Origin: Desulfobacterales bacterium
Lineage (GTDB): Bacteria; Desulfobacterota; Desulfobacteria; Desulfobacterales; JAFDDL01
Length of the DNA: 64,000 nucleotides
NCBI GenBank assembly: GCA_034003325.1
Contig: JAVEYW010000006.1
Location: 4,362-68,361, forward strand
Reading direction: 5' to 3'
Shown in pieces: positions 29,122 to 57,096 of this stretch; the stretch's first letter is position 1; every line of letters begins with the position of its first letter. Made by a program: the position numbers and the translations under genes. Below the pieces are notes generated by a model. The model did not search any database. It was not told the DNA's origin and worked only from the letters and a program-made list of their open reading frames with translations.

Positions 29122-29133
29122 CGGTAGTGATGG

Positions 29134-32060: not shown

Positions 32061-32075
32061 AGTGCGAAGTACCTT

Positions 32076-32187: not shown

Positions 32188-32196
32188 TTATACCCT

Positions 32197-33195: not shown

Positions 33196-33196
33196 G

Positions 33197-33961: not shown

Positions 33962-33977
33962 TGAGAAAGCAAGCTCA

Positions 33978-36080: not shown

Positions 36081-36141
36081 GGCCGTTGCTATCACAGAAA
36101 TTTTAACATCATCGTCGAAAAATTTCAAAAGGAGGGGAAAA

Positions 36142-40303: not shown

Positions 40304-40359
40304 GCCGGGCTGGCCGGCTTGCAGCCGCGCAATGATCATGTTTGATAAGGATAACCGCC

Positions 40360-42558
40360 ATGGATAAAAAAATTCAAATTGCATCCGCCATTCTTGAAGC
40401 GATCGAAGACGGCATTTACGTCGTCGGCCGGGAATTTAAGCTGGAATACATGAATTCGGCCATGATCAGAGAGTTGGGGAACGGTGTCGGGAAAAATTGT
40501 TTCGAAGTCATTCACCGACTGAGGGAGAAGTGCCCGTGGTGTTTGGCCCAGGAGGTTTTTGACGGCAAAACGCAGCGGCGGGAAGTGCGGTTTCCGGCGA
40601 CCAATAAGTATTACGACATCATTGATGTGCCCCTCAAAAGCCCGGATGGCGGCAGCGTCTCCATGCTGAGTATTTGTCGGGATATCACGCTGAGAAAGCA
40701 AAGCCAGGCGCGGTTGCGGGCATCTGAAAAGGATTACGAATACCTTTTCGAGAATGTGGGATGCGGCGTGTATATCAGCAACAAGGAGGGCAAGGTCTTG
40801 AATGCAAATCGGGCCTTGATCGAAATGCTGGGGTATGAAAGCAAGGAAGAATTTTCGAAAATCGATATTGCAACGGATTTATATCTGCGGCCGGCGGATC
40901 GGGTGAAATTCCAGGAAATGGTCGAACGCGACGGCCGGGTGATCGATTATGAAGCCGAGTTCAAGCGCAAGGATAAACGCCCGTTAACCGTTCTTCTTAC
41001 CAGTCATGTCCGATTAAATTCACAGGGCGAGATCGTAGGCTATGAAGGGATCATCGTTGACCAGTCCCAGAGAAAATTGATGGAAGAAAAACTCAGGGCC
41101 TCGGAAGAAGACTTTAAAAGGCTTTTTGAGTTGGTTGAATGCGGCGTTTTTATCAGCAGCAAGGACGGCAGGTTCATCAAAGTCAACAAAGCGCTTCTGG
41201 ATATGCTGGGATACAGCAGTGAGGCGGAGTTTTTGACGCTGGATATCGCACGGGATCTTTACGTGCGGCCGGAGGATCGGAAACGATTCCAGGAGGCGAT
41301 CGCGCGTGACGGCCGGGTGGTGAGCCAGGAGGTTGAATTCAGGAAAAAAGACGGCGGCACGGTGTCTGTCCTGCTGACAGGCCATGCGCGATACGACCAA
41401 AAGGGAATCATCATTGGTTATGAAGGGCTGAATGTGGATATTACCCAGCGAAAGCTGATGGAGAAAGAGTTAAAAGAAGCCTATGATTTCATAAATAAAA
41501 TTATAAAAAGTTCCCCCAACCCCATCATTGCGGCCGACATGAAGGGCAGCATCATGATCTGGAATCCTGCCGCGGAAGAAACACTGGGGTATCGGGCAGA
41601 AGAAGTTATCGGGAAAATCAATATTCAAGATATTTATCCGGACGACATGGCCTTTAAGGTCATGAAGATGATGCGTGGCCCGGACTATGGGGGCGTGGGC
41701 AAGCTGCGCGCCTATCCCATGATATTTTTAAAAAAGGACGGCACCGGGGTGGAAGGTAACCTGTCCGCGGCGATTTTATATGATGCCGGCGGAAAGGAGG
41801 TCGCCTCCGTCGGCTCCTTTGTGGATCTCGAAGAGCGGCTCGAAATGGAGAGGGCGTTGCAGCGAACCCAGGCGCAGTTGCTGCAGGCTGAAAAACTGGC
41901 CGCCATGGGAAGACTGACCTCTCAGATCGCCCATGAACTCAACAACCCGCTTTACGGAATCATGAACACGCTGGAACTGATGAAAACAGAGATTCCACCG
42001 GAAAACAGGCGTCGCAAAATTTTGGAAATGGCTCTTTCGGAAACCATGCGCTTAAGTGACCTGCTCAAAAAAATGCTCTCCTTTTCCAAGCCGGACCAGG
42101 AAGAAAAGGCGGTCGTGAATATCAACATGCTGTTGGATGAAATCCTGTCGCTGCATGGAAAACAATTGCTTGAAAACAACATACGAATTTCCGCGGCCCT
42201 TTCAGAGGATCTGCCGAATATTTTCGCTTCCAGAAATCAATTGCGCCAAGTATTTATCAACCTGATCAAAAATGCAATGGACGCCATGCCGGAGGGAGGG
42301 GAGCTGCGCGTGCGTACCGGCAGCGACGCCGGTCGGGTTCGTGTCGATGTGTCCGATAACGGGATCGGCATTCAGAAAGCGCATTTGGGAAAAATATTTG
42401 ACAGTTTTTTTACCACCAAGGACAGCGTCAAAGGCGTTGGCCTCGGCTTGTCCGTCTGTTACGGGTTTATCAAGGACCACGGCGGTGATATTCGGGTGGA
42501 GAGCAAGCCCGGCGCCGGCACCACGTTTATAATCACCCTGCCTTGCCACGACGATTGA
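40360..42558 (+). CDS. Multi-PAS sensor histidine kinase
   Basis: Several PAS-like repeats (..FENVGCGVYISNKEGKVLNANRAL.., ..FELVECGVFISSKDGRFIKVNKAL..). HisKA H-box SQIAHELNNPL. HATPase N/G boxes (NLIKNAMDAM, GIGI, GVGLGLS). Confidence 0.9.
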   Translation: MDKKIQIASAILEAIEDGIYVVGREFKLEYMNSAMIRELGNGVGKNCFEVIHRLREKCPWCLAQEVFDGKTQRREVRFPATNKYYDIIDVPLKSPDGGSVSMLSICRDITLRKQSQARLRASEKDYEYLFENVGCGVYISNKEGKVLNANRALIEMLGYESKEEFSKIDIATDLYLRPADRVKFQEMVERDGRVIDYEAEFKRKDKRPLTVLLTSHVRLNSQGEIVGYEGIIVDQSQRKLMEEKLRASEEDFKRLFELVECGVFISSKDGRFIKVNKALLDMLGYSSEAEFLTLDIARDLYVRPEDRKRFQEAIARDGRVVSQEVEFRKKDGGTVSVLLTGHARYDQKGIIIGYEGLNVDITQRKLMEKELKEAYDFINKIIKSSPNPIIAADMKGSIMIWNPAAEETLGYRAEEVIGKINIQDIYPDDMAFKVMKMMRGPDYGGVGKLRAYPMIFLKKDGTGVEGNLSAAILYDAGGKEVASVGSFVDLEERLEMERALQRTQAQLLQAEKLAAMGRLTSQIAHELNNPLYGIMNTLELMKTEIPPENRRRKILEMALSETMRLSDLLKKMLSFSKPDQEEKAVVNINMLLDEILSLHGKQLLENNIRISAALSEDLPNIFASRNQLRQVFINLIKNAMDAMPEGGELRVRTGSDAGRVRVDVSDNGIGIQKAHLGKIFDSFFTTKDSVKGVGLGLSVCYGFIKDHGGDIRVESKPGAGTTFIITLPCHDD

Positions 42559-42833
42559 TTCATCATGCTTCCGCTTTTCGCCGGTCCGGCTGCGGACGCG
42601 GCTGTCAACGCGGGAAGATGCGGAATGTTCCCGCCGGTATCAAGCTATAAAAGCTGAAATAACTATAAAAAAAATATGTTTATCAATGACTATATATGTA
42701 ATAAATAAATTTTAACTAACTGTTATAATAGTTAATTTAACTATTATTGCGAATTTGTGTTGACATGGCGGTTTTTAACTGTAATAGATGAAATAACTAT
42801 ATTTCAAAATATAGAGCAAAGGAGCCCGCTCCC

Positions 42834-43406
42834 ATGGAAGATATCCTCACCGTATTCAAAGCCAGTCAGTACTGTAGCGTGTCCAGCAAAACCATCATTA
42901 ACTGGATCGAAGCCGGACACATCAAAGCCTATAAAACCGTCGGCGGCCATCGCCGCATCAACCGCAGCGATCTTGAAGCGTTTATGAGAAAGCAGGGCAT
43001 ACCGATTCCCGAAACCGGTGTGGCCGATGAGAGAATCAGAATCCTGGTGGTGGATGATGACCCGATTATCGTGGAAACCATTGTGCAGGCCCTGGAAGAA
43101 GATGAATTCGACTATGAGGTGATCTCAGCCTCAGATGGATTTGAAGCCGGGCTTCAGGTGAACCATTTTGCGCCGCATCTGATGATTCTCGATATCATGA
43201 TGCCGGATATCAAGGGCTATGAGGTCTGCAAAAGGATCAAGGACCACCCGGATACCCGACACATGAAGATCATCGTGTTGTCCGCTTATCTGGACGAAGA
43301 AAAATTTAAAAAGATGACGGAGTATGGCGCAGACGCCTGTTTCTCCAAGCCTTTCCCGCTGCCTCAACTGAAAGAAGAAGTCGCCCGACAGCTCCAGTTG
43401 CGCTGA
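42834..43406 (+). CDS. Response regulator with N-terminal excisionase/MerR-type HTH and C-terminal receiver domain
   Basis: ..YCSVSSKTIINWIEAGHIKAYKTVGGHRRI.. is the HTH. ..ILVVDDDP..LMILDIMMPDIKG..KIIVLSA.. is the receiver. Confidence 0.85.
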   Translation: MEDILTVFKASQYCSVSSKTIINWIEAGHIKAYKTVGGHRRINRSDLEAFMRKQGIPIPETGVADERIRILVVDDDPIIVETIVQALEEDEFDYEVISASDGFEAGLQVNHFAPHLMILDIMMPDIKGYEVCKRIKDHPDTRHMKIIVLSAYLDEEKFKKMTEYGADACFSKPFPLPQLKEEVARQLQLR

Positions 43407-43469: not shown

Positions 43470-44345
43470 ATGAAGCTCAAGGAAGCGATTGAAAAAAAGC
43501 AGTTTGTCGTCACATCGGAAATCCAGACCCCGATCGATGACACGCCGGAAGATCTGGTGCGCAGCCTTGCCCCGATTCGCGGTCGTGTGGACGGCGTATC
43601 GCTGACCAAGGTGGAGTTGGAGGGCGTGGTCGGCGACACCATTAAGACCTGTCAGCTTCTTCAGCAAAGCCAGATCGAGCCGATCTATCAAACCACGACC
43701 CGGGATAAAAATCGCCTTCAACTGCAAAAGGATTTGATCGACGCGCACCAGAGCGGCATCGAAAACCTTCTGGTATTTACCGAAGATTATCGCATTACGG
43801 GTGATAGTTTGCAGGAAATGATGTTTTTTCATGTGGATGCGGGAAAACTGCAATCCGTATTGGCGCATATCCGGCAAGGCCATACCGTTGACGGGGAAGC
43901 ATTGCCCTCGGCACCCGATTTTCTGATCGGTTCCGGTGTGGAGTCCTGCTGGGGCAAACAGGTGCCGGATCTGGAATTAAGGGAAATGGAAGAGATGACC
44001 AAAGTCGGCGCGGGGTATTTTTTGACTACGCCGGTGTTCGACCTGGATCAGTTTGCCAAATTTCTAAAACGAATCGATACGTTCGGGGTTCCCGTCATCG
44101 CGGAAGTCATGATCTTGCGAACGGCCGGCATGGCCCGGTTTCTTAACCGGCATCTGAAGTCCGGTATGGTGCCGGAGTGGATGATACAAAAGATGACCCG
44201 GGAGCCGGACCGACAGAAGGCGAGCATTGAAATTTTTTCTGATACCGTCAACGGGTTGAAACATCTTTGCCAGGGGGTTCATATCATTACCATCGGCGGA
44301 GAAGACAAACTTCGGCTCTATCTGGATGCCGCCCGGCTGAAATAG
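43470..44345 (+). CDS. Divergent methylenetetrahydrofolate reductase-like protein (MetF paralogue)
   Basis: ATG 43470 with GAGGAGG upstream. ..KQFVVTSEIQTP.., ..TTTRDKNRLQLQ.. and ..GAGYFLTTPVFD.. align with the second MetF at 51552 (..KFVVTSEVAPP.., ..MTCRDRNRLALQ.., ..GAEFIQTQAVYD..). Confidence 0.7.
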   Translation: MKLKEAIEKKQFVVTSEIQTPIDDTPEDLVRSLAPIRGRVDGVSLTKVELEGVVGDTIKTCQLLQQSQIEPIYQTTTRDKNRLQLQKDLIDAHQSGIENLLVFTEDYRITGDSLQEMMFFHVDAGKLQSVLAHIRQGHTVDGEALPSAPDFLIGSGVESCWGKQVPDLELREMEEMTKVGAGYFLTTPVFDLDQFAKFLKRIDTFGVPVIAEVMILRTAGMARFLNRHLKSGMVPEWMIQKMTREPDRQKASIEIFSDTVNGLKHLCQGVHIITIGGEDKLRLYLDAARLK

Positions 44346-44432
44346 CCTCTAAGCGGGATGCTTTCGAAAAAAGCGGGCGAAGCGCCGATTCGTTCCTAGA
44401 CCACTATCAACTTCGCAAAAGGAGTGCTTTTT

Positions 44433-47081
44433 GTGGAAAACATGGTCATTTCCATTGACGGGAAAACCGTCAGTTGCCGGGCCGGCACCAGTATTCTCGA
44501 AGCCGCCGACCAGCTCGGCATTCGGATTCCGAGATTATGCCATCACCCGGATTTAAAACCCTTCGGCGCGTGCCGGCTTTGTCTGGTGGAAGATGAAAAA
44601 ACGGGTCGCCTGATGGCGGCCTGCGTCACGCCGGTGGCCCCGCACCTGGCGGTGCAGACCCACTCGCCCAGAGTCGTGAATCACCGGCGGAACATTATTC
44701 GCCTCATGATCGCCGAGCACCCGGAATCCTGCATCGTGTGCAGCAAGGGAAACCGCTGCGGGCTGCGTCAGGTCGCGGCCCAATACGGCGTGGGAGAGAC
44801 GCATCTTTATCCCATGGCCAACGCAAGGCCGCTGGAGCAGGCAAACCCTTTTATAACCCGGGATTTGAGCAAGTGCATTCTCTGCGGAAAATGCATTCGG
44901 GCGGACCATGAACTGGTGGCGGTGGGAGCGATCGACTATAATCATCGTGGGTTTCGCTCCAGGCCGGCAACCGTCCATGAAGCGGATCTGGGCGCTTCGG
45001 AATGCACGTTTTGCGGCACCTGCGTTTCAATCTGTCCCACGGGCGCCTTGGCACTCAAAGGCGGCGCCTATGTGGGCACGCCGGTCGTTGAATCCGATTC
45101 CGTTTGCGGCTTTTGCGGGGTGGGATGCCGGCTTGCGATGGGCGCAGCCTATGAAAAAATCACTGAAGTCAATCCCGCAGGCGGGCCCGATTCGGTCAAT
45201 GGTGCCACGCTCTGTGTTCGCGGCCACTTTGCCCATGATTTTCTGAATACCCCGAAACGGCTTCACGGGCCTTTGATTCGAACCCCTCATCCGGACACCG
45301 GAGAATCCGACCTCGCGCCGGCATCCTGGGAGGCGGCACTCTGCCGGGTGTCGGATCGCTTCAGGCGGATTATTGCGCAAAGCGGTCCGCAGAGCATCGG
45401 ATTTCTGGGTTCATCCAAATGCACCCTTGAGGAAAATTACCTGTTTCAAAAGCTTGCTCGCGTTACCGTCCAAACGAACCACATCGATAACGGCGGGTTC
45501 GTTTCCGGCCAACGCCTGGTGATGCATTTGGATGAAAAGACCGGCGGCAGATGGCGGCGCAACCCGCTGTCATGGCTTGACAGCGCCGAGAGCATCCTGG
45601 TGATCGGCGCGGATCCCAACCACTCGGTGCCCGTGGTCAGCTATTACCTGAAGCGGGCGGCGCAAAGAGGGGTCCCTCTGATCGTGGTGGACCCCAGGCG
45701 AACGGAGTTGGTTAAATGGGCCACCGCATGGCTGCGGATCAACCCGCGGTCGGATCTGGAACTGCTGAACGGGCTGGCGGCTTGCCTGCTGGAGCGAAAC
45801 GGGTATGACGCTGCGTTTATTGATAAGCATACGGAAGGCTTCGGTCTGTATCGCTATGGGCTTTCCTCCCTGAACAGGGACCGGGTCTGCCGAATGACCG
45901 GGCTAGAAAAAAGCCGAATTGAGCGCGCAGCGGATCTTCTGCACGGCAAGAAGATATCGGTGGTGGTGGGGCATGGGATTTTGCAGCAGCAATACGGCGC
46001 TCATTCGCTGGGAGCCCTGATCAACTTAAGTCTTTTGTCCGGCGGGTTCGGTGTGCGTCCCGCGGGGTTTTACGTCCTTATAAGGGAAAACAATGCGATG
46101 GGTGCCATGGATATGGGGGCGGTGCCGAATCTGCTGCCCGGTCGCCGGTCGCTCACTCATGAAGCGGTTCGCAAATCCTGGGAAAAGGCATGGAAAACCA
46201 CCTTGTCGCCGGATCCGGGCCTGGATATGGTGCGAATGATTGAGGCGGCGGAAAAAGGGTTTTTGAAGGCGCTTTATATCATGGGGGAAAACCCGGTTCG
46301 ATCCCTGCCCGAGTCCGATCGCGTGAAAAAAGCGCTTCAAAAACTGGAATTTCTGGTGGTTCAGGACATCGTGCAGAACGAGACCACGGCGATCGCCGAT
46401 GTCGTGCTTTCCGGTGCCGCATTCAGCGAAAAGGGCGGCGCTTTCACGAATCTGGAAGGCCGCATTCAGTCGTTCTCGCCGGTGGTCTCGCCGCCGGGCC
46501 TTGCCCGGGCGGACTGGTGGATTCTCGATTCACTGGGCGGGAAAATGGGGAACGCGGCGCCTTATGGCAGTGTGGATAAAATAGACGAAGAAATTCGGCG
46601 GCTGGTGCCCATGTATGCCCAACTGGATGGTCGGGCACAGGGCTGGATCGGGGCGGAGCAACCAAACGGGGCGCATCCGATATCCTTTTCGGCGGTGGTG
46701 TCCACTGAAGAGGCGCCCGTTGCCGAAGACTTCCCGGTGACGGCGATTATCGGCTCACAGCGGTATCATCTGGGCAGCGGCACGAGAACCGGCCTTTCTC
46801 CGCGCATTCGGGCGGTCGATGTTCAAGCGCGCGCGGAGATATCGCCGCAGGACGCTGAAGCGCTGAATGTAAGCGACGCAGGGCGAGTGCGCATTGTCTC
46901 CCACTGCGGGGAATTGACGCGCGATGTCCGGGTGAACGGCGACTTGTCGCCGGGGCAGGTGTTTGTGCCGACGGGTGTGGAGAATAATTCCGCTCTGGCC
47001 CTGATCGGGTTGGACGCGCTTTCAGGGGCTCGTCCCGCCGGGTGGAAAACCTGCCCGGTCAGGCTGGAAAAGGTCGATTGA
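44433..47081 (+). CDS. FdhA/NuoG/SfrA-like molybdopterin-oxidoreductase-fold iron-sulfur protein lacking the Sec/Cys-His active-site pair
   Basis: N-terminal 2Fe-2S (CHHPDLKPFGACRLC). 4Fe-4S motifs (CILCGKCIRA, CTFCGTCVSICP, CGFCGVGC). MopB-like body. GGFVSGQR stands at the position of FdhH CARVUHGP. Start is uncertain (GTG 44424/44433, ATG 44442). Confidence 0.8.
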   Translation: MENMVISIDGKTVSCRAGTSILEAADQLGIRIPRLCHHPDLKPFGACRLCLVEDEKTGRLMAACVTPVAPHLAVQTHSPRVVNHRRNIIRLMIAEHPESCIVCSKGNRCGLRQVAAQYGVGETHLYPMANARPLEQANPFITRDLSKCILCGKCIRADHELVAVGAIDYNHRGFRSRPATVHEADLGASECTFCGTCVSICPTGALALKGGAYVGTPVVESDSVCGFCGVGCRLAMGAAYEKITEVNPAGGPDSVNGATLCVRGHFAHDFLNTPKRLHGPLIRTPHPDTGESDLAPASWEAALCRVSDRFRRIIAQSGPQSIGFLGSSKCTLEENYLFQKLARVTVQTNHIDNGGFVSGQRLVMHLDEKTGGRWRRNPLSWLDSAESILVIGADPNHSVPVVSYYLKRAAQRGVPLIVVDPRRTELVKWATAWLRINPRSDLELLNGLAACLLERNGYDAAFIDKHTEGFGLYRYGLSSLNRDRVCRMTGLEKSRIERAADLLHGKKISVVVGHGILQQQYGAHSLGALINLSLLSGGFGVRPAGFYVLIRENNAMGAMDMGAVPNLLPGRRSLTHEAVRKSWEKAWKTTLSPDPGLDMVRMIEAAEKGFLKALYIMGENPVRSLPESDRVKKALQKLEFLVVQDIVQNETTAIADVVLSGAAFSEKGGAFTNLEGRIQSFSPVVSPPGLARADWWILDSLGGKMGNAAPYGSVDKIDEEIRRLVPMYAQLDGRAQGWIGAEQPNGAHPISFSAVVSTEEAPVAEDFPVTAIIGSQRYHLGSGTRTGLSPRIRAVDVQARAEISPQDAEALNVSDAGRVRIVSHCGELTRDVRVNGDLSPGQVFVPTGVENNSALALIGLDALSGARPAGWKTCPVRLEKVD

Positions 47082-47125
47082 AAAGAACATGCCCGCGAAG
47101 CGGGAAAAGCATCGAGGGAAATGAA

Positions 47126-47620
47126 ATGACTCCTCCGCCGATTGATTGGGATAAGCTGGCAGCAACGATTGAAAAGTTTAAAGACCAAAAATGGGGGCTG
47201 ATTCCCCTGCTGCAGGAGATTCAGGCGCATTTCGGCTATATTCCGCCCGATACCATCGACCCCATTGCCGAGGCGATGAATCTCTTTCCCGCGCAGGTTC
47301 AGGGAGTGATCAATTTTTACGCCGGGTTTTCATTGGAACCCAAGGGCAAATACGTGATCAAGGTCTGCCGGGGAACGGCCTGCCATGTCAAGGGCAGCGA
47401 AAGCCTTTTACGGCTCATGAAAAGGGAGCTGAATGTCGGAGAGGGCGAGACCACGCCGGATTACCGGTTTACCCTGGAAACCGCGGCTTGTCTCGGCGCC
47501 TGCGCGCTGGCGCCGACGATGATGGTGAACAAGAATTATTTCGGCAAGGTTTCTCCTGCCAAGGTCAGCTCCACGCTGGGCGAATACGGAAAACCCGACC
47601 ACGAAGAAGACACGCAATGA
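47126..47620 (+). CDS. NuoE/HndA-like [2Fe-2S] thioredoxin-fold subunit
   Basis: ATG 47126 with GAGGGA upstream. ..LIPLLQEIQAHFGYIP.. and CRGTACHVKG...CLGACALAP cysteine pattern. Confidence 0.85.
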   Translation: MTPPPIDWDKLAATIEKFKDQKWGLIPLLQEIQAHFGYIPPDTIDPIAEAMNLFPAQVQGVINFYAGFSLEPKGKYVIKVCRGTACHVKGSESLLRLMKRELNVGEGETTPDYRFTLETAACLGACALAPTMMVNKNYFGKVSPAKVSSTLGEYGKPDHEEDTQ

Positions 47621-47697
47621 CGGATTTCCCTTTATATTTGTCGACTGGTGACTGTCGACTGAAGACTTCCGGCGATGCCGGATGAGGATGCAAGTAT

Positions 47698-50600
47698 ATG
47701 GCGACCCTAAAACATCTTGAAACCCCTTCGCATCTGGAAGCATTTCGGCAAGATATTTTGCGTGCCCGTGATGACGCCAAGCCCGCGGTCAAGGTCTGCT
47801 GCACGACCGGGTGCCGGGCGGGCGGATCCTTGAAAATCATGGATGCGCTGCATCGAGAGCTCTCGGACCGGGGGCTGGCCGATACGATTGAGGTGAAGAA
47901 AACCGGGTGTCGCGGCTTTTGCGAAAAGGGCCCGGTCATGGCCATCGAGCCGGAAAATATTTTTTATAACCAGGTAACCCCCGAGGATGTCCCTGATATT
48001 GTGACGCAAACCCTTCTTTCCGGTGATCCGGTGTCACGGCTGCTTTACATGGATCCGGAAACCAAAAAGCCGATCCGGTATGAAAAGGATATTCCCTTTT
48101 TCGGAAAACAGGTTCGCCGGGTGCTGGCCAATTGCGGCCGCATCGATCCCACGCGCATCGAGGATTATATCGCGGCGGGCGGATACCGGGGTTTAAGCAA
48201 GGCGCTGACCCGCATGACGCCCGATGAGGTGATCGAGGAGGTCACGGCCGCCAAACTCAGGGGCAGGGGCGGCGCCGGGTTTTCCACGGGTCTGAAATGG
48301 AAGTTTACCCGTCAGGCGGCCGGCCGGCCCAAATACATTGTCTGTAACGCGGATGAGGGGGATCCCGGCGCGTTTATGGATCGTGCGGTTTTGGAAGGAG
48401 ATCCGCACGCCGTGCTGGAAGGCATGCTCATCGGCGCCTATGCGATTGGTGCCGAATACGGGGTGATCTATGTGCGCGAGGAATATCCCCTGGCCGTTGA
48501 ACACCTGCAGTTGGCCATTGATCAGATGACATCGCTCGGCATGCTTGGAAAAAGTATTCTGGGCACGGATTTTCACTTTGAGATGACGATCAACAAGGGA
48601 TCCGGCGCTTTTGTCTGCGGCGAGGAAACCGCACTCATGGCCTCCGTGGAGGGAAAACGTGGCATGCCCCGGGCCAGGCCCCCTTTCCCCGCGCAGGCGG
48701 GGTTGGACGGCAACCCCACCAATATCAATAACGTGGAGACCTGGGCCAATATTCCGCTCATCGTCAACCATGGGGCCGCATGGTATGCCGAACTGGGTAC
48801 CGAAAACAGCAAGGGCACCAAGATCTTCTCCCTGACCGGCAAGGTCAACAACACGGGACTTGTCGAGGTTCCCATCGGGGTCACCATCAAGGAGGTTGTC
48901 TACGATATCGGCGGCGGCATTCCCAAGGGCAGACAATTTAAGGCGGTGCAGATGGGCGGCCCTTCAGGCGGCTGTGTGCCGGCCCAGTTCATCAACCTGC
49001 CCATCGATTACGATACCCTTCAGCGCATCGGCGCCATCATGGGTTCGGGCGGCATGGTGGTTATGGACGAGAATAATTGCATGGTGGAGATCGCCCGGTT
49101 CTTTCTCAACTTCACTCAGTCCGAATCCTGCGGTAAATGCACGCCGTGCCGTATCGGAACGACCCAGTTGCTGGAGATTTTAACCCGGATTACCCGCGGA
49201 GAGGGCAAACTCGAGGATTTGGAGACGATCAAGGCCCTGGGTGAAACCATCATGGAATCCTCCCTGTGCGGCCTGGGCCAGACTTGCCCCAAGCCTGCAT
49301 TGTCCACCCTTAAATACTTCACGAAGGAATATGAGGATCATATTCGGGAACATCGCTGCGCAGGCGCCGCCTGTGATGCCATGGTGATTTCGGCCTGTCA
49401 GCATGCCTGCCCCGCCGGCATTGATGTTCCCAATTATGTGGCAGCCGTTGCCGAAGGAAATTATGAAGCGGCCGTGGAGATCATTCGAGAGCGAAACCCC
49501 TTTCCGGCCGTGTGCGGCCGAATCTGTATTCATCCTTGCGAGGTCAAATGCCGCCGGGGCGAGCTGGATGCGCCGGTGGCCGTTCGGCTGTTGAAACGCT
49601 ATGCCGCAGATTGGTATTTTCAGCACATCGGCACGGCGGCAACGCCGTTTGCCGTCACGCAACCCGGCAAGGTGGCGGTGGTGGGGGCGGGTCCTGCCGG
49701 ATTAACCTGCGGGTATTTTCTGGCAAAGCGGGGATACCGGGTAGAGGTGTTTGAATCCCAGCCCGTGGCCGGCGGCATGCTCGGCATTGCGGTGCCGGAG
49801 TTCCGTCTGCCGCGACGGGTGATCGAAGAAGAGGTGCGCTATATTCAAAGCTGCGGGGTCACCATTCACTACGACACGCCCATCGATGCCCGGCATACCG
49901 TCAACGATCTGATGGCCGAGGGCTTCAGCGCAGTGTTTATCGCCGCCGGTGCCCAGTCCAGTTTGCGCTTAAGAATTCCAGGGGAAGAAGAGAAGCTTGA
50001 CGGGGTGTATAACGGCTTGCAGTTTTTGACGGATGCGCGAACCGGCAAAGGCATTCGGTTGCGCGGAAAGGTCATTGTGATCGGCGGCGGGAATGTGGCT
50101 TTTGATGCCGCCAGAACCGCGTTGCGAATGGGTGCGGACGGGGTCATGATTTACTACCGCAGAACCCTTCAGGAAATGCCGGCCTGGGAGCAGGATATCA
50201 AGGAGGCTGTCGAGGAAGGCGTGGTCATTCATCCCCTGTGGGCGCCCAAGGAAATTCTTTCAAAAGCGGGCCGGGTCACCGGCATGGCGTTTGCGCGAAG
50301 TTGCACCATCTGGGATAAAAACGGCCAGGCGCGCCTCAGTATTGATGAGGACACGGTACAGGCGGTGGATGCCGACACCGTGATCATCGCCATCGGTCAG
50401 GCGCCGGATGTCTCTTTTCTCTCCAGGGACCATCTGATAGAGCGGTCCCTGTGGGGCGGTCTCGAAGTAGACGCCAACCGGTTGGCCACCAATATTCCCG
50501 GGATTTTTTCAGGCGGGGATTTTATCATCGGTCCCAGCACGGTCATACAGGCCATCGCTTCCGGCAGAAGAGCGGCCATTGCCATTGACAAATATCTGCT

Positions 50601-50841
50601 CGGTGATAAGGGCCGGGTTGAAATTTCGGATGAGAAAACCGCCAGGGCTTCGAGCGCCAGACTGGCCCTGGAGCAGCCCCTCACGGAGGATCAACCCCGG
50701 ATTTTGGCCGATCATGAAGCGGTCGCGGAAAGAGTCGCGGATTTTCGAGAGGTTGAAAAAGGATTTACTCAGGACCAGGCGCACCGGGAGGCTAGGCGTT
50801 GTCTGCGGTGTGATCTGGAAAAGGAGATCGTAAACGAATGA
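47698..50841 (+). CDS. Fusion of a NuoF/HydB-like FMN/NAD(H)-binding subunit and a GltD/NfnB-like FAD/NAD(P)H oxidoreductase
   Basis: N-terminal thioredoxin-like 2Fe-2S (CCTTGCRAGG..GCRGFC). GRGGAGFSTGLKW FMN site. CGKCTPCRIGT. Then ..CPAGIDVPNY..NPFPAVCGRICIHPCE..VAVVGAGPAGLTCGYFL..GGGNVAFDAA.. is GltD-like. 1047 aa. Confidence 0.85.
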   Translation: MATLKHLETPSHLEAFRQDILRARDDAKPAVKVCCTTGCRAGGSLKIMDALHRELSDRGLADTIEVKKTGCRGFCEKGPVMAIEPENIFYNQVTPEDVPDIVTQTLLSGDPVSRLLYMDPETKKPIRYEKDIPFFGKQVRRVLANCGRIDPTRIEDYIAAGGYRGLSKALTRMTPDEVIEEVTAAKLRGRGGAGFSTGLKWKFTRQAAGRPKYIVCNADEGDPGAFMDRAVLEGDPHAVLEGMLIGAYAIGAEYGVIYVREEYPLAVEHLQLAIDQMTSLGMLGKSILGTDFHFEMTINKGSGAFVCGEETALMASVEGKRGMPRARPPFPAQAGLDGNPTNINNVETWANIPLIVNHGAAWYAELGTENSKGTKIFSLTGKVNNTGLVEVPIGVTIKEVVYDIGGGIPKGRQFKAVQMGGPSGGCVPAQFINLPIDYDTLQRIGAIMGSGGMVVMDENNCMVEIARFFLNFTQSESCGKCTPCRIGTTQLLEILTRITRGEGKLEDLETIKALGETIMESSLCGLGQTCPKPALSTLKYFTKEYEDHIREHRCAGAACDAMVISACQHACPAGIDVPNYVAAVAEGNYEAAVEIIRERNPFPAVCGRICIHPCEVKCRRGELDAPVAVRLLKRYAADWYFQHIGTAATPFAVTQPGKVAVVGAGPAGLTCGYFLAKRGYRVEVFESQPVAGGMLGIAVPEFRLPRRVIEEEVRYIQSCGVTIHYDTPIDARHTVNDLMAEGFSAVFIAAGAQSSLRLRIPGEEEKLDGVYNGLQFLTDARTGKGIRLRGKVIVIGGGNVAFDAARTALRMGADGVMIYYRRTLQEMPAWEQDIKEAVEEGVVIHPLWAPKEILSKAGRVTGMAFARSCTIWDKNGQARLSIDEDTVQAVDADTVIIAIGQAPDVSFLSRDHLIERSLWGGLEVDANRLATNIPGIFSGGDFIIGPSTVIQAIASGRRAAIAIDKYLLGDKGRVEISDEKTARASSARLALEQPLTEDQPRILADHEAVAERVADFREVEKGFTQDQAHREARRCLRCDLEKEIVNE

Positions 50842-51491
50842 TCAGATCCATCACCCAACCCAAATCGGAAGAAGAAATTGACCGGCTTTTAACCGGACTC
50901 GGCAGAGTGTTTATCATCGGCTGCGGCACCTGTGTGACGCTTACCCGCACCGGTGGGGAGCCTGAAGTCGCCGCCATGAAAGCAAAACTTTCCGGAAAGG
51001 GAAAACTCGTCACCGGACTCACGGTGGTGCCCGTGGCCTGTGATAACCTGACCCGGGAGGTTCTATCCGAATTCGGCGCCCGGATTGATCAGGCGGACGT
51101 GCTGCTGGTGATGACCTGCGCCTTTGGGGTGCAGACCATTGCCAGGCAGTTGAAGGTGTTCGTGGTGCCGGCCCTGGATACGCTCTTTATCGGCAAGGAG
51201 ACCGGCGTCGGGCTGTACGATGAAATCTGCACACAATGCGGTACCTGCGTCATCGGCGAAACCGGCGGCATTTGCCCGGTCACCAATTGCCACAAGGGCT
51301 TGGTCAACGGCCCCTGCGGCGGCACCAATCACGGCATGTGCGAGATCGATGTCAACAAGGACTGCGCGTGGACTTTGATATACAACCGCTTAAAGGAACT
51401 TGGCCGGCTCGATGCCATGAAAAAGTATCAGCCGCCCAGAAACCATCAGGGCGAGCCCAAACCCGGAAAGTTGAAACTGCCGGCAGGATAG
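50838..51491 (+). CDS. metV: MetV (Cys-rich MTHFR-associated small subunit, MTHFR_C domain)
   Basis: ATGA overlap with the upstream stop. ..IIGCGTCVT.. and ..CTQCGTCVIGETGGICPVTNCHKGLVNGPCGG.. motifs. Confidence 0.8.
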   Translation: MIRSITQPKSEEEIDRLLTGLGRVFIIGCGTCVTLTRTGGEPEVAAMKAKLSGKGKLVTGLTVVPVACDNLTREVLSEFGARIDQADVLLVMTCAFGVQTIARQLKVFVVPALDTLFIGKETGVGLYDEICTQCGTCVIGETGGICPVTNCHKGLVNGPCGGTNHGMCEIDVNKDCAWTLIYNRLKELGRLDAMKKYQPPRNHQGEPKPGKLKLPAG

Positions 51492-51551
51492 CAGCGCGGT
51501 TTTTCATTTGGCTGCTCTCCCCCGTGACTTTTAACGAAAGGATCAAGTCTC

Positions 51552-52436
51552 ATGGTGTCATCATTTAAAACGGCACTGAGTTCGGGAAAATTCGTGGTGA
51601 CCAGCGAGGTCGCGCCTCCCAAGGGGACGAATCTTGAAAAATTCAAGCATCATATCGAGTTGCTGAAAGACAAGGTGGATGCCATGAACGTGACCGATCA
51701 TCAAAGTTCGGTCATGCGGTATCCGTCCCTGGGCGGCGCGATTCTGGCAAAAGAAATGGGCGGAGAGGTCATTTTGCAGATGACCTGCCGGGACCGAAAC
51801 CGGCTGGCCCTGCAAGCGGATTTGCTCTTTGCGCACACGCGGGGGGTCCAAAACGTGCTGTGCCTCACGGGGGATTCCATTATTCTGGGCGATCACAAAG
51901 AGGCCAAAAGCGTCTTTGATCTCGATTCAAGCCAGTTGCTGGAAGCGATTCGAACCCTGGAGAAGGGGAGAGATCTTGGCGGCAACGATCTGGACGGCGA
52001 GGTGTCCTTTTGCGCCGGCGCGATCGTAACACCGGAAGCAGACCCCCTGGAGCCCCAGCTTATCAAATTCGAGAAAAAAATCGATGCCGGCGCCGAGTTC
52101 ATTCAAACTCAGGCCGTCTACGACCTGGAACACTTTAAAACCTTCATGACCTATGCCCGCCAGTTTGACGTGAAAATCCTGGCTGGGATTATTTTATTGA
52201 CCTCCGCGCCCATGGCCCGTTTTATGAATAAAAACATCGCGGGCGTCAGTGTTCCCCAGGCCCTGATCGATGAGATGACCGCAGCCCCCAAAGGAAAAGC
52301 CCTGACCCGGGGAATAGAGATCGCCGGCCGAATGATCAAACGAATCAAGGAAGAAAACCTGTGCGACGGGGTGCATATCATGGCCATCGGCAAGGAGGAA
52401 ACCGTCCCGGACATCATGGCGGCCGCTGGCTTATGA
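51552..52436 (+). CDS. metF: Methylenetetrahydrofolate reductase (MetF, acetogen/anaerobe type)
   Basis: ..GKFVVTSEVAPPKG..DAMNVTD..MTCRDRNRLALQADLL..LCLTGD..FIQTQAVYD... 294 aa. Immediately downstream of metV. Confidence 0.85.
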   Translation: MVSSFKTALSSGKFVVTSEVAPPKGTNLEKFKHHIELLKDKVDAMNVTDHQSSVMRYPSLGGAILAKEMGGEVILQMTCRDRNRLALQADLLFAHTRGVQNVLCLTGDSIILGDHKEAKSVFDLDSSQLLEAIRTLEKGRDLGGNDLDGEVSFCAGAIVTPEADPLEPQLIKFEKKIDAGAEFIQTQAVYDLEHFKTFMTYARQFDVKILAGIILLTSAPMARFMNKNIAGVSVPQALIDEMTAAPKGKALTRGIEIAGRMIKRIKEENLCDGVHIMAIGKEETVPDIMAAAGL

Positions 52437-53458: not shown

Positions 53459-54907
53459 TCAGGCTCTCAATTCCACCTGCCGGTCCGTTTCCGGATCATA
53501 ATACGTTATTCGGGTGTCAAATGTGTTCAGATCCAAATCCAGATGCGCCTGGTACGGCGGCAGTACCCAGGATAGTCCCAACCGGTCCTCATTGGTGTTT
53601 TGAATATGAAAGGTGCCGTTAAATGCCGGGTATCCATTTCTAAGTTCCATGAGCCGCAGCAGCCGCTGAACCACCGGTCTTTTGATTTCCTCCGCGATTT
53701 CATCAAGCGAATAATTGTGGCGGTTGATATCCCGGCCGTTTTTGGTTTGCTCCAAAAGTGCGATGTCATTTTTCCCGGCCAATAAGCCCACATAATACAC
53801 CTGCGGAATCCCCGGGGTGAAAAACTGAATTGCTCTGGCGGCGATGTAGGCATCGTCATTGCACCCCAGCGCCGAATAATAAGTGCAGTTGACCTGATAA
53901 ACATCCAGGTTCTGGTATTCGGGGCCGGAATAAAGCCGCTTGACGTTGCCGCCTTTTTCATCGAGCGTGCTTAGCGCGGCTGCAATTTCTTCCTCGGACA
54001 TTAACTTGAAGACATCCACCACACCGATACCGTCGTGGGTGTCCAGGGTGGTGATTTGTTTTTGCGGGCAGATTTTAAGCCAGTCCACCAATCGGCGGTG
54101 GGTGTGGTGATACAATGAATGGAGCACCAGCATCGGTAGGGCGAAATCATAGACCCAATAGCCTTTTTCGGCTAAGCGCAGCTGATACTCATGATTTTCA
54201 TGGACTTCAGGCAATAATTCCGCTTCAAAAGGCTCGGTATAATTTTTTATCCATTCAAGTAGCTCCCAAATCTGCGGTTCCTGAAAAAAGCAGTCGGTAC
54301 CGATTTTAACGGTCGCATAGGCAATGGCGTCCAACCGAAGCATCTTGATATCGATTCTTGCCAGGCGGATTAGATAATTTCTCATCACTTCAAGGGTTTT
54401 TGGCGATTGCCAATCCAGATCGATTTGCTCGAATTCAAAGGTGCACCAGATTTTTTCATTCGAGCCGTCGGCCCTTTGGATGACCGTAAATGGCGGGCGG
54501 GGTTTGCGTGTGTAAACCTTGTCCAGGTCCTCCACAGAAATTTCGCCGTCCGGGCTGAGCTTGTTGAAGCTTAAAAACATATCCGCGAACTCGCTGTTTG
54601 TGCCCTTTGTGATGTAATCCTGAAAAAACACCGATTGCCGGGAAATATGATTGACCATAAAGTCGATGGTAAGATCAAAGTCCTGAGCGATTTCCTCCAC
54701 ATCTCGCCATGTGCCGAAATTGGGGTCCACTTCATCGTATCGCAAGGGCGAAAATCCCCGATCGGCGGATGACGGATAAAATGGCAACAGGTGCAGGCCG
54801 CCGATGCGGTTGCGTAAATATTTTCGAAGCACGAAATGCAATTCCACCAGATTGTTCCCAAGGCTGTCCGGATAGGTGATGAGTTGGACCTGATTTTTAA
54901 GCGTCAT
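53459..54907 (-). CDS. Sucrose phosphorylase family (GH13_18) glycoside phosphorylase
   Basis: ..VQLITYPDSLG..LHLLPFYPSSADRGFSP..DFMVNHIS..LRLDAIAY..LDTHDGIGV..NRHNYS.. follows sucrose phosphorylase closely. ATGA overlap with the sps stop. Confidence 0.85.
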   Translation of the reverse strand: MTLKNQVQLITYPDSLGNNLVELHFVLRKYLRNRIGGLHLLPFYPSSADRGFSPLRYDEVDPNFGTWRDVEEIAQDFDLTIDFMVNHISRQSVFFQDYITKGTNSEFADMFLSFNKLSPDGEISVEDLDKVYTRKPRPPFTVIQRADGSNEKIWCTFEFEQIDLDWQSPKTLEVMRNYLIRLARIDIKMLRLDAIAYATVKIGTDCFFQEPQIWELLEWIKNYTEPFEAELLPEVHENHEYQLRLAEKGYWVYDFALPMLVLHSLYHHTHRRLVDWLKICPQKQITTLDTHDGIGVVDVFKLMSEEEIAAALSTLDEKGGNVKRLYSGPEYQNLDVYQVNCTYYSALGCNDDAYIAARAIQFFTPGIPQVYYVGLLAGKNDIALLEQTKNGRDINRHNYSLDEIAEEIKRPVVQRLLRLMELRNGYPAFNGTFHIQNTNEDRLGLSWVLPPYQAHLDLDLNTFDTRITYYDPETDRQVELRA

Positions 54908-57096
54908 ACGGTTCCCTCTTTTGCTTTATCAATAAACTGATAGTGATCGATCGCCTCTAAAATGCCCCCGGCGCATTCTGCCGTCGCAAAATAGACGTGT
55001 TTGGCCCCTTTGAGTTTTGCAAGTTCAGGGCTGTAATTTCCGACAACTACCGCCAGCGGATCGCCTCTGAGCATTTCTTCATCGTTTCCCGAATCCCCAC
55101 AAACCAAAATATTGGTGAGCGGAATTTCCCATTGATAGGATAGATAGCGAATCGCTTTTCCCTTTGAAGCGCGGTAGGGAAGAATGTCCAGATATCGATT
55201 ATGGGAATAAATCAGATAATAGCGGCACCTGTTATTCAACAGTGTGTTATGAATGCTTGCCACGCGGTCTTTTCCCGGATCCATGTTATAGCTGATCTTG
55301 AAGTTGCGTTGTGCCGATTCTTCCTGGTATTCAAGAAAATCGTATTTTTCAAGCAGGCGCACGATTTTTCCCCGGTCCCATTTGTCGGAAATATGGGTTT
55401 CCCACCCCTTGCCGTAATGCAATTCTTTGCCGAAATAAATTTCAGTGCCCACCGATGAGATGATGATATCGGGTTCCGGCACGCCGTGTCTTTTGAGAAA
55501 TGAGGCGGCTGAGTCGACCGTTTGTCCCGTGGCGACGGCAAAGCCGATTGTTTTTTTATTCTCTTCCATCAAAGCCAGCAGCGCGGCCAATTGATCATTA
55601 TTGCTTCCGATCAAGGTGTTGTCGATATCGGTGATGAGAAAATAATTGAGGCTGGCCAATCGACGTCCGATGGTGACGGGCGGTTCGGCGTGCTTGAGTT
55701 CACTGGTTGTTTCATCGGGCCTAAGCTGTTGCAGGGCGTTGGTGTATTCGTCGGCATGATGATGCCAAGTGTAGTGCTTTCGAACATTTAAAATGCCATT
55801 TTTTGAAAACCGATCCCAGGTTTCGCTGCTGGAGATAATGCTTTTAATTGCTTGTGACAGCGCTTTTGTATCCGAAGGATCGATTAAGATGCCGTTTTTA
55901 CAGTTTTCTATAATATCTTTGGGTCCCCCATCGTTGGTGGCGACGATGGGCGCGCCGGTGGCAGAGGCTTCCAGCAGGGTCAAGCCGAAGGGCTCTGTCA
56001 ACGCCGGGTTGACGAAAACCCCTTTTTTCCCGGCAACAATGCGGTACATTCCGGGCACTTCGTGTTCAAAGTCATGCTTCTTGGGAATGGCCATTTTCCC
56101 GTACAGGTCGTATTTGTCCATGAGCAGCAGCATTTCTGTCAAAACACCGCGCTCATTGTCTTCCATCTGGGTAATATCTTTTCTGATGCCGGCAAAAACC
56201 GCCAGGTTGGCCATGGCCTGAAGTTCCGAATCCTCCCCGTACGCTTTGATAAGCCCCCGTATATTTTTCCGTTTATCCGGTCTGCAAAGGCTGAGAATGA
56301 TCGGTTTGTCCGGATGAAGAAAAAACCGATTCAATTCGTTGAGCACGGATGCATGGGCATAGGCGGCTTGTTCATCTTTCCCGTTGGTTGGTAAAAAATC
56401 ATGATAATAAGGGTAAAATTTTTCAAGATCCAATCCCGGCGGAATCACTTTGTAGGTGGGCAGATCCTTGTTTCTGTACAAACCGTATTGCTTCTCAATT
56501 TCCTGCCGGGTACTGGTAATAATTAAATCGGCATATCGCAGGGCGTCTTCTTCGGCATAAATGCGCCGGTCTATTTTATACTTTTTGTTGATGTCCTCCT
56601 CGCTCATGCCGTCATTCAGCAGCTTTTCTTTTTTCACGCGCCCCATGGAATGGCCGGTGTAAACAAGCGGAACACCGAATATTCTTGCCAATTCCATGGC
56701 AACATAACCGCCATCGGGATAATGCCCGTGAACCACATCCGGAAGGCGGGATTCGCGCTTGATGAATCGGACGGTTTTGTCGATATATTCATCCAGGTGC
56801 GGCCATAATAATTCCTTCCGAATGTATTTTGTGCCGCCGCTACGAATTCGAACGATGCGGAATTTTTCGTTTACCACTTCGATAGGGCGCGAATAGTCTT
56901 CCGATACCGCTTTATCGGCGATCCATCGGGTAAACAGATCCACGCGATCAACCAACGCGTGTTGTGAAAGATGGCTACAAAGTTCAATGACATATTTAAT
57001 TTGACCGCCTGTATCGGCATCTCTCCCCAGTTCCATGTGGTGCGCCCGAATGAGCCCGTGAATACTGAACATCTGTATATAAAACTTATTTTTCAA
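54904..57096 (-). CDS. sps: Sucrose-phosphate synthase (GT4) fused to an SPP-like HAD-IIB domain
   Basis: ..SIHGLIRAHHMELGRDADTGGQIKYV.. SPS N-terminus. GT4 ..EPFGLTLLEA... C-terminal HAD ..FLITDIDNTL..CGDSGNDEEM... TTG 57096 (GGGGAG 8 nt upstream) overlaps the fruK stop (TTGA). ATG 57072 is an alternative. Confidence 0.85.
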   Translation of the reverse strand: MKNKFYIQMFSIHGLIRAHHMELGRDADTGGQIKYVIELCSHLSQHALVDRVDLFTRWIADKAVSEDYSRPIEVVNEKFRIVRIRSGGTKYIRKELLWPHLDEYIDKTVRFIKRESRLPDVVHGHYPDGGYVAMELARIFGVPLVYTGHSMGRVKKEKLLNDGMSEEDINKKYKIDRRIYAEEDALRYADLIITSTRQEIEKQYGLYRNKDLPTYKVIPPGLDLEKFYPYYHDFLPTNGKDEQAAYAHASVLNELNRFFLHPDKPIILSLCRPDKRKNIRGLIKAYGEDSELQAMANLAVFAGIRKDITQMEDNERGVLTEMLLLMDKYDLYGKMAIPKKHDFEHEVPGMYRIVAGKKGVFVNPALTEPFGLTLLEASATGAPIVATNDGGPKDIIENCKNGILIDPSDTKALSQAIKSIISSSETWDRFSKNGILNVRKHYTWHHHADEYTNALQQLRPDETTSELKHAEPPVTIGRRLASLNYFLITDIDNTLIGSNNDQLAALLALMEENKKTIGFAVATGQTVDSAASFLKRHGVPEPDIIISSVGTEIYFGKELHYGKGWETHISDKWDRGKIVRLLEKYDFLEYQEESAQRNFKISYNMDPGKDRVASIHNTLLNNRCRYYLIYSHNRYLDILPYRASKGKAIRYLSYQWEIPLTNILVCGDSGNDEEMLRGDPLAVVVGNYSPELAKLKGAKHVYFATAECAGGILEAIDHYQFIDKAKEGTV

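Follow-up and report, generated by a model that had tools for sequence, protein, structure and literature searches.

The subject of this report is an operon of six co-directional genes on the + strand (43470-52436) of a 64,000-nucleotide stretch of a Desulfobacterales genome (contig JAVEYW010000006.1), referred to below as the window. Open reading frames and Pfam matches give a gene order in which a MetF-like paralog of methylenetetrahydrofolate reductase (MTHFR) is followed by an FdhA/NuoG-like gene, a NuoE-like gene, a NuoF-GltD fusion, metV and metF. The encoded proteins are:

43470-44345, + strand: MetF-like paralog with the MTHFR fold, 291 amino acids (aa) (PF02219, 70.6 bits)
44433-47081 (alternative start 44424), + strand: FdhA/NuoG-like iron-sulfur (FeS) protein, 882 or 885 aa (Pfam)
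47126-47620, + strand: NuoE/HydC/BfuC-like thioredoxin-fold [2Fe-2S] protein, 164 aa (PF01257)
47698-50841, + strand: NuoF-GltD fusion, 1047 aa (Pfam)
50838-51491, + strand: MetV, the FeS/Zn subunit of MetFV-type MTHFR (PF12225)
51552-52436, + strand: MetF, the catalytic flavin TIM-barrel subunit (PF02219)

A first-pass annotation of this DNA had described six co-directional genes with short gaps and an ATGA overlap at 50838, lying directly downstream of a PAS kinase/response-regulator pair. It had also named as partners of MetFV a large FdhA-fold FeS protein and a NuoE/NuoF module fused to a GltD/NfnB-type flavin adenine dinucleotide (FAD) module, in place of RnfC2 or HdrABC-MvhD. Each of these observations holds on open reading frames, Pfam domains, PDB matches and reading of the sequence. 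The stop codon of the fusion gene and the start of metV share ATGA at 50838-50841, and the other gaps are about 87 nt (MetF-like to FdhA-like), 44 nt (FdhA-like to NuoE-like), 77 nt (NuoE-like to fusion) and 60 nt (metV to metF). The MetF-like gene lies 63 nt from the preceding regulator gene and starts at an ATG with AGGAGG ahead of it. The start of the FdhA-like gene is a GTG at 44433, chosen by ribosome binding site and independent gene call, and that of the NuoE-like gene is the ATG at 47126, behind the ribosome binding site GAGGGA. The same six genes and starts were obtained from an independent gene call on a public ENA contig of identical sequence, and the MetF-like product is 100% identical to a public protein annotated to a Desulfobacterales metagenome-assembled genome. 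Within the cluster, terminator-like hairpins followed by T show no excess (15 found, 14.0 expected from shuffled sequence), and at its downstream end the operon meets a convergent Hsp20 gene. No further MTHFR, MetV, NuoE or NuoF paralogs were found elsewhere in the 64-kb window.

MetF matches PF02219 over residues 6-292 with 141.6 bits (cut-off 24), as an MTHFR TIM barrel should, and its PDB matches are classical MTHFRs only. MetV, encoded directly upstream, matches PF12225 (MTHFR_C) with 117.8 bits, carries NGPCGG at residues 157-162 and has 12 Cys that are invariant across 66 sequences; it thereby combines the MTHFR_C domain, the NGPCGG motif and the Cys for two [4Fe-4S] clusters that mark a MetFV-type MTHFR. 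No PDB relative of MetV and no solved MetFV-containing complex were found. On these features MetF is confidently predicted to be the folate- and flavin-binding subunit and MetV its FeS partner. The operon holds one metV only, despite two MTHFR genes. The MetF paralog is about 30% identical to MetF, and its PF02219 match covers the full length of the protein. Its AlphaFold2 (AF2) model has a pLDDT of 84.5 and finds MTHFRs as its best PDB folds (TM 0.72-0.75), so that the model identifies it as an MTHFR-fold TIM barrel. Between the two families 40 positions are invariant and identical, and a further 44 are invariant in each family but different. In the paralog RD.NR is retained, as are the Glu of TSE and the Asp of TxD, while the TQ motif reads TT; at a mean identity of 0.71 among its orthologs, it is evidently under strong purifying selection.

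The FdhA/NuoG-like protein (FdhA-like below) has the full FdsA/NuoG-type architecture, with the Pfam domains Fer2_4, NADH-G_4Fe-4S_3, two Fer4, Molybdop_Fe4S4, Molybdopterin and Molydop_binding. Its clusters would be an N-terminal [2Fe-2S], a His/Cys3 [4Fe-4S], two of ferredoxin type and the [4Fe-4S] of the MopB domain, which is complete and includes both the molybdopterin and the dinucleotide-binding domains. The closest PDB matches are alpha subunits of FdsA-type NAD-dependent formate dehydrogenases (FDHs), at E 6e-125. However, the Mo/W-ligand Cys and the His of FDHs align to Ser361-Gly362 and the active-site Arg aligns to Ile553. Across 59 orthologs these positions are variable, no protein has a Cys at the ligand position and no gene contains an in-frame TGA, whereas every FeS-ligating Cys is invariant. 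The score against the NCBIfam Fdh-alpha model TIGR01591 (463.6 bits) also falls below its cut-off of 666.25. Because the catalytic residues are replaced or variable, the FeS ligands are all kept and the score lies below the cut-off, FdhA-like is not taken for a formate dehydrogenase, and it has every sequence hallmark of an FDH-derived iron-sulfur protein whose formate site has been lost. With that site gone and its FeS ligands invariant, its role would resemble that of NuoG in complex I or of the Fdh-like domain in NfnA, and in our reading it serves as scaffold and electron wire. In one ferredoxin-type motif, CxxCxxCxxxD, an invariant Asp stands in for the fourth Cys (CILCGKCIRADHE; residues 151-163, window 44874-44912), which suggests a Cys3-Asp-ligated or [3Fe-4S] cluster in the wire. 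Mean identity among orthologs is 0.51 in the MopB part, the least conserved stretch of the operon, against 0.68 in the FeS part. FdsABG and Moorella SfrB2-SfrA2/FdhF3 likewise combine an FdhA-fold alpha subunit bearing [2Fe-2S] and NuoG-type clusters with NuoE/NuoF- or GltD-like nucleotide-binding subunits; unlike NAD(P)+-dependent FDHs, the window protein is without the catalytic Sec/Cys-His and Arg. For Geobacter SfrAB, the likeness lies in an architecture that is shared according to its description in the literature.

The NuoE-like protein scores 166 bits against PF01257 and 142.6 bits against the NCBIfam NuoE model, and Cys81, 86, 122 and 126 are invariant across 74 sequences, as for the [2Fe-2S] site (C1) of a Bfu C subunit. 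In the fusion, the Pfam domains follow one another in the order 2Fe-2S_thioredx, Complex1_51K, SLBB, NADH_4Fe-4S, Fer4_20 and Pyr_redox_2. The NuoF part is of HydB/BfuB type, with an N-terminal [2Fe-2S], a flavin mononucleotide (FMN)/NADH site and the N3/B1 [4Fe-4S] cluster. Residues 31-566 match the NiFe-HydB chain 7t2r_B at 3.6e-226 and both NfnB (9bov_B) and StnB (8oh5_B) at about 1e-195; matches of the same part to complex I (about 1e-112) and to FdsB-type FDH beta subunits (about 1e-114 to 1e-123) are far weaker. On these scores the NuoF part belongs with HydB, NfnB and StnB of the Bfu family, and not with complex I or FdsB. Cys478, 481, 484 and 524 and Cys35, 39, 71 and 75 are invariant, and the FMN/NAD(H) site, the B1 [4Fe-4S] cluster and the N-terminal thioredoxin-like metal site (B5) of a Bfu B subunit are all recognisable. 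The NuoE-like protein and the NuoF part are thus clearly predicted to make up a HydBC/BfuBC-type FMN-NAD(H) core.

The remainder of the fusion is of GltD/NfnB type, with the Fer4_20 clusters, FAD and an NADPH-type second Rossmann fold. Residues 566-1039 match the GltD-like domain of NfnA (9bov_A, residues 103-567) at 4e-95 and StnC (8oh5_C) at 2e-89, with a weaker match to NfnL of NfnSL (2e-83). Lys633, at the position of the NfnA A7 ligand Lys170, is invariant, and the match extends to a linker ending in CxxC. Eight Cys between residues 554 and 618, as well as the C-terminal CxxC, are invariant or nearly so across 81 sequences, and the C-terminus of the fusion is readily recognised as a complete GltD/NfnB-type unit with FAD and [4Fe-4S] clusters. 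A hinge motif, HIREHRCAGAAC, aligns with HIRDKKCPAxxC of HydB, StnB and NfnB (shared pattern HIRxxxCxxxxC); in Bfu enzymes the hinge carries the B2 zinc site (3 Cys + 1 His). Alignments to these three proteins end at the hinge, about 55 residues short of their C-termini. The ferredoxin-like C-terminal domain of Bfu enzymes, which holds the B3/B4 [4Fe-4S] clusters, is not present in the fusion, where no Fer4-type Pfam match was found and Fer4_20 plus the FAD domain stand instead. By alignment, the FAD module occupies, immediately behind the common hinge motif, the place that the ferredoxin-side domain has in Bfu enzymes.

The FAD module comes in two forms. The dinucleotide motif after its second Rossmann strand is Y-R-R, of NADPH type, in 45/81 orthologs and C-L-E, of NADH type, in the other 36/81, with about 70% identity otherwise. 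In the window the motif (fusion residues 820-823, window 50155-50166) is Y-R-R, of NADPH type, within YYRRT, while the C-L-E group takes in Desulfonema magnum and the Olavius symbiont. Presence or absence of the MetF paralog has no bearing on this split. The split fits a product site with drifting coenzyme preference better than a fixed NADPH donor, and a dedicated NADH/NADPH transhydrogenase would not be expected to tolerate such a switch. The FAD site would be expected to use NADP or NAD according to lineage, and a Bfu-type ferredoxin site would not be expected.

Relatives of the operon were sought with the fusion protein in one genome per species, which gave 322; counts of gene context refer to the best 80 loci, in which the fusion is 67-89% identical and which come almost all from Desulfobacterales / Thermodesulfobacteriota. 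Comparisons with protein databases took in the closest 120 matches. Carriers among these 80 loci include metagenome-assembled genomes of Desulfosudis oleivorans, Desulfonema magnum 4be13, the benzene degrader ORM2a, the Olavius Delta-1 symbiont and the Desulfobacterium of the TRIP enrichment, and environmental copies of the operon number in the thousands. A recurrence of the gene order in Desulfobacterales had been named by the first-pass annotation as a check on the cluster, and it is found: of the 43 loci whose length allows a judgement, all six genes stand in this order in 35 and the five genes from FdhA-like to metF in 41, the MetF paralog being missing from about six. This conservation of gene order is well beyond chance. 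The tightest junction in the operon is that between the fusion gene and metV (median gap 1.5 nt across 78 loci; 47% overlapping, typically by ATGA; 91% at 20 nt or less), compared with a median gap of 99 nt between metV and metF, and metV follows the fusion gene directly in essentially every one of the 80 loci. The pattern resembles translational coupling of two subunits of one complex, which is circumstantial evidence for such a pairing. MetF has the highest mean identity among orthologs of any protein in the operon (0.84), and its paralog reaches 0.71.

Several of the related loci depart from this layout. In one (L062, CP070657; 6259-11120), the NuoE-like and fusion genes are kept, FdhA-like is reduced to its C-terminal half and metV/metF are absent downstream; because its FdhA-like gene is truncated, this copy looks decayed or rearranged, a remnant. 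In a variant without the MetF paralog (L022; 838-4756 and 12738-18527), the operon is surrounded by genes for a PAS kinase, an NtrC-type regulator dependent on sigma54 and additional receiver proteins, and such variants also encode a 654-aa paralog in which Fer4_20 and an FAD domain are joined to the C-terminal [4Fe-4S] domain of NuoF. In another (L037; 13947-19036) there is a second, convergent MTHFR cluster, comprising HdrA-like, MvhD/FlpD, MetV, MetF and a receiver protein.

Part of this arrangement is already in the literature. Yi et al. 2021 (PMC8515935; Microbiol Spectr 9:e00958-21) noted genes for NuoEFG homologs upstream of metFV in Dethiosulfatarculus sandiegensis, described the arrangement as occurring 'widely in Desulfobacterales and Chloroflexi', and proposed a hypothetical pentameric 'X type' MTHFR, MetFV-NuoEFG, with MetFV of group III in the supplement. 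Electron bifurcation was put forward for it in a two-sentence speculation. The window operon, with NuoE, NuoF and NuoG homolog genes immediately upstream of metV-metF, is X-type by gene arrangement, that is, of a predicted and uncharacterised kind. The passages of Yi et al. that deal with the arrangement describe the genes only; the GltD fusion, the MetF paralog, the dead FDH site, the replaced ferredoxin-side domain and the two-component system have no mention there. The first-pass annotation had proposed a distinct, possibly bifurcating MTHFR complex, and had allowed that the cluster might be characterised already under another name. The conserved unit fits a dedicated MTHFR system, as it had supposed, but the arrangement had already been published. 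A name exists in those passages, and no biochemical, structural or expression (proteomic or transcriptomic) study of an X-type cluster was found in the literature. Thus the central idea is in print; the present analysis confirms the observation and partly supports the interpretation. It adds that the FDH site is dead, that the accessory proteins are kin to Stn/Nfn but fused in another way, that the ferredoxin arm of Bfu enzymes is lost, that the FAD-site motif is split between YRR and CLE, and that metV is tightly coupled to the fusion gene. Elsewhere, the acetogen literature recognises MTHFR types I-IV, none with Nuo-type partners; a survey classifying the Bfu family does not mention MTHFR, and the D. 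autotrophicum genome paper has only 'MetF-ABC', in a legend.

The precedents given by the first-pass annotation were the RnfC2 and Hdr-type partners of MetFV. Type III (MetFV-RnfC2, A. woodii) and type IV (MetFV-HdrABC-MvhD, M. thermoacetica/S. ovata) do share with the window operon a MetFV core without an NAD(P)H site and an adjacent NAD(P)H-oxidising FeS-flavoprotein module, but the window's accessory module has no kinship with RnfC2 or HdrA. What the annotation missed is that this module has its nearest characterised relative in the Sporomusa-type Nfn, Stn/NfnABC (Bfu type 1; 8OH5, 9BOV, 9N5U), whose structures are also the nearest solved ones to either half of the fusion. In S. ovata, StnABC consists of a NuoE-like protein, a NuoF-like protein and a GltD-NuoG fusion, is encoded directly downstream of metVF and purifies alone as an electron-bifurcating NADH/ferredoxin/NADP+ transhydrogenase (Kremp et al. 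2020). In Stn/NfnABC the C subunit is NuoE-like and the B subunit is of HydB type and holds FMN; a GltD/NfnB-like FAD-NADPH domain and a NuoG/Fdh-like FeS domain that lacks a catalytic pterin complete the set. Thus metVF has these four types of domain as its companions in two phyla that are far apart. In Bfu enzymes, the low-potential electron leaves FMN through the NuoE-type cluster and passes to the B3/B4 clusters, which reduce ferredoxin, and the GltD-like domain of the A subunit serves the mid-potential branch. The topology differs in the window. The GltD domain of Stn/Nfn is inserted in the A subunit between the [2Fe-2S] and NuoG-like parts, whereas the A-type protein of the window has no insert, is nearer to true FdsA FDHs and keeps a full MopB domain; the B subunit of Stn/Nfn ends in a 2x[4Fe-4S] ferredoxin-like domain, whereas that of the window ends in the GltD module. 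Strict membership of Stn/NfnABC (Nfn-Bfu) was considered and rejected: two defining architectural features, the position of GltD and the B3/B4 domain, fail, and the operon is therefore not filed there. Since the FAD module stands in place of the ferredoxin-side domain, the module set cannot work exactly as Stn does. Stn/NfnABC is the best precedent for the operon and the strongest rival to our reading of it at once.

The setting in which such an operon would matter is the reversed Wood-Ljungdahl pathway, used by complete-oxidising sulfate reducers, syntrophic acetate oxidisers and hydrocarbon degraders. Its thermodynamic bottleneck is the oxidation of methyl-tetrahydrofolate (methyl-THF; -200 mV) with NAD+ (-320 mV), which costs about +23 kJ/mol, and ever since the first description of the pathway the acceptor of these electrons has gone unidentified. 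On its own, MetFV lacks a site for NAD(P)H and takes electrons from ferredoxin. A mechanism of bifurcation or confurcation is explicitly demanded in the literature on acetogens and syntrophic acetate oxidisers; even the Hdr-type MTHFR of acetogens is still unresolved in the literature.

Against this background, we consider it probable that the operon products form one physical complex, a view supported by the domain composition, the near-invariant gene order and the tight fusion-metV junction. The operon would then encode one cytoplasmic multi-subunit methylene-THF reductase / methyl-THF dehydrogenase of X type (MetFV-NuoEFG), in which MetV would be translationally coupled to the fusion protein and FdhA-like would be the NuoG-like wire or scaffold between MetFV and the flavoprotein core, with all subunits in one complex. 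That this physically coupled MTHFR complex also has an energetic coupling of the confurcation type, acting in methyl-THF oxidation, has in our view somewhat less than an even chance; the dead FDH site with its invariant FeS ligands, the HydB/NfnB-type NuoF part and the thermodynamic need argue for it. In complete-oxidising sulfate reducers the complex would run mainly in the oxidative direction, as CH3-THF + low-potential donor + 2 NAD(P)+ -> CH2-THF + 2 NAD(P)H, with the FMN site and the FAD site each reducing one nucleotide. The donor would most likely be reduced ferredoxin, which MetFV enzymes are known to use. By our own calculation from published potentials this is approximately isoenergetic, as (-200 + -450)/2 ~ -325 mV, and the reverse reaction would be the long-postulated bifurcating MTHFR. 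More tentative still is a specific new wiring for confurcation, which we regard as doubtful but worth stating. Here the HydBC/Bfu-type FMN core would have its ferredoxin arm swapped for an NfnL-type FAD module, and the dead FDH scaffold would carry MetFV, and perhaps the MTHFR-fold paralog, docked at the former place of the pterin, so that methyl-THF oxidation is driven uphill to NAD(P)H. If true, this would supply the methyl-THF dehydrogenase that the oxidative acetyl-CoA pathway of marine sulfate reducers has so far lacked.

A number of points weigh against this interpretation. Both the complex and its bifurcation are read from sequence, and the cluster is known from its genes alone in every organism that carries it. 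With the canonical Bfu ferredoxin-binding domain missing from the fusion, no ferredoxin site is evident. The known Bfu wiring is not directly transferable, since NAD(H) serves Bfu enzymes as the high-potential partner, whereas the potential of methylene-THF lies above that of NAD. In many relatives a second, Hdr-type metVF cluster of the Moorella kind (type IV-like) lies nearby; in several (L037, L006, L049, L051) it is 2-5 kb downstream of the X-type operon, with MetF and MetV about 40% identical to those of that operon, and two MTHFR systems thus stand side by side. The proteome of the sulfate reducer BzS1 shows an Hdr-linked MetF2, and its supplement only that MetF. The neighbouring cluster and this proteome together weaken the assignment of a physiological role to the X-type operon. 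The role of the extra MetF paralog is also unexplained.

The alternative that survives best, though we think it unlikely, is that the operon encodes two enzymes on one transcript, namely a type II-like MetFV that depends on ferredoxin, and a transhydrogenase for NADH/NADPH (and ferredoxin), built as a rearranged Stn/NfnABC, which would restore the balance of redox carriers around the methyl branch. StnABC/NfnABC have the same inventory of domains, and the S. ovata case counts both for this alternative and against a single complex: Stn, encoded right after metVF, purifies independently, and MetVF purifies alone, with a weak interaction with Hdr proteins. The L062 copy, which keeps the NuoE-like and fusion genes without metVF, points the same way, but its truncated FdhA-like gene gives it the look of a remnant. 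Other features fit two enzymes poorly. The GltD module now sits on NuoF, replacing the B3/B4 domain that Stn/Nfn need for ferredoxin reduction, and an NADH-type FAD-site motif would make an NADH/NADPH transhydrogenase pointless in the 36 orthologs that carry it. Unlike stnABC, the accessory genes of the window are bracketed by MTHFR genes on both sides and apparently coupled to them, the fusion gene by its metV overlap, and among the best 80 loci the fusion gene is almost never found without metV.

Less likely again is a complex of the same composition that does not bifurcate. Such a complex would act simply as an NAD(P)H:methylene-THF oxidoreductase, to which NuoEF-GltD contributes one or two nucleotide entry sites, as RnfC2 does in Acetobacterium woodii, and methyl-THF oxidation would be pulled by product removal. 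There is a precedent in the type III enzyme, which is NADH-dependent and non-bifurcating and whose reverse reaction is pulled by methylene-THF dehydrogenase; moreover, the fusion has no recognisable ferredoxin-binding domain and no ferredoxin gene was found within the operon. On the other hand, about 2,100 extra FeS/flavin residues and two flavin-nucleotide sites exceed what simple hydride entry needs, and the NuoF part groups with the bifurcating HydB/NfnB type and retains its N-terminal [2Fe-2S] domain and the hinge Cys motif. A last reading, in which the three middle genes are an NAD(P)+-dependent FDH (FdsABG-like or Moorella SfrAB/FdhF-like) sitting between MTHFR genes, draws on the FdsA-type matches of the large subunit, the FdsB and FdsG homologs alongside and the SfrB (GltD-like) beta subunit of the Moorella NADPH-FDH, but it is highly improbable, formate dehydrogenase identity being ruled out by the active-site residues and the TIGR01591 cut-off described above.

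If the operon does encode the coupled complex favoured here, it may account for the oxidation of methyl groups by these bacteria in spite of an adverse redox gradient. Its characterisation would close part of the energy balance for the mineralisation of carbon in the sea and could add a new architecture to the known bifurcating enzymes. The operon is abundant, is present in cultured strains and offers a clear, testable set of subunits.

Upstream of the operon lie three further features:

40342-42558, + strand: soluble PAS-PAS-PAS histidine kinase (Pfam PAS_9/PAS x3, HisKA, HATPase_c)
42559-42833, no strand assigned: AT-rich leader/promoter region of 275 nt between the kinase and regulator genes
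42834-43406, + strand: response regulator with N-terminal HTH_17 and C-terminal receiver (REC) domains (Pfam)

The kinase is syntenic with the operon in most related loci. A regulator with helix-turn-helix and receiver domains (HTH-REC) stands upstream in 40/47 judgeable loci, usually together with a PAS kinase; its orthologs are 76-86% identical, with a median gap of 66 nt to the next gene. In the few loci without the MetF paralog, a sigma54-type regulator is present instead. Such a dedicated two-component system suggests conditional use of the operon, which the PAS kinase and HTH-REC regulator would switch on under some condition. In the first PAS-like domain of the kinase, the motif C-x10-CPWC (residues ~47-61, window 40480-40530) has its three Cys kept in 24/24 alignable orthologs, and may be a thiol, metal or redox sensing site that controls the operon. 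The leader contains three 21-nt direct repeats, a perfect palindrome with 11-nt arms (ATAATAGTTAA-T-TTAACTATTAT, 42725-42747) and a sigma70-like match at 42775-42803. All of the 40 orthologous leaders are AT-rich, and a conserved operator was not found among them, the exact 7-mer of the window not being kept.

The rest of the window holds several further loci of note; no Rfam families or tRNAs were found anywhere in it. A Fur-family regulator gene is followed directly by one for a monofunctional catalase (7115-9114), in a strictly anaerobic lineage, and a small NIR_SIR-type sulfite/nitrite reductase-like protein is encoded nearby (5832-6620). The cluster at 17199-24462 (- strand) encodes a lysine-2,3-aminomutase-like radical SAM enzyme, two D-Ala-D-Ala-ligase-like ATP-grasp enzymes, a histone-deacetylase/GNAT fusion (785 aa) and an FAD-dependent protein, and may represent a beta-amino-acid or small-peptide pathway. 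At 26621-30975 (- strand), an indolepyruvate/2-oxoacid:ferredoxin oxidoreductase-like pair adjoins an acetyl-CoA hydrolase/transferase-GNAT fusion. A Liv-type ABC transporter operon occupies 31203-37317, one ATPase gene (33954-36080) being fused to an AMP-binding, phenylacetate-CoA-ligase-like domain. Beyond the six-gene operon, a sucrose-type cluster at 53459-57998 (- strand) encodes a GH13 amylosucrase-like protein, a sucrose-phosphate synthase/phosphatase fusion (773 aa) and a PfkB sugar kinase, and probably serves compatible-solute metabolism in a marine sulfate reducer.

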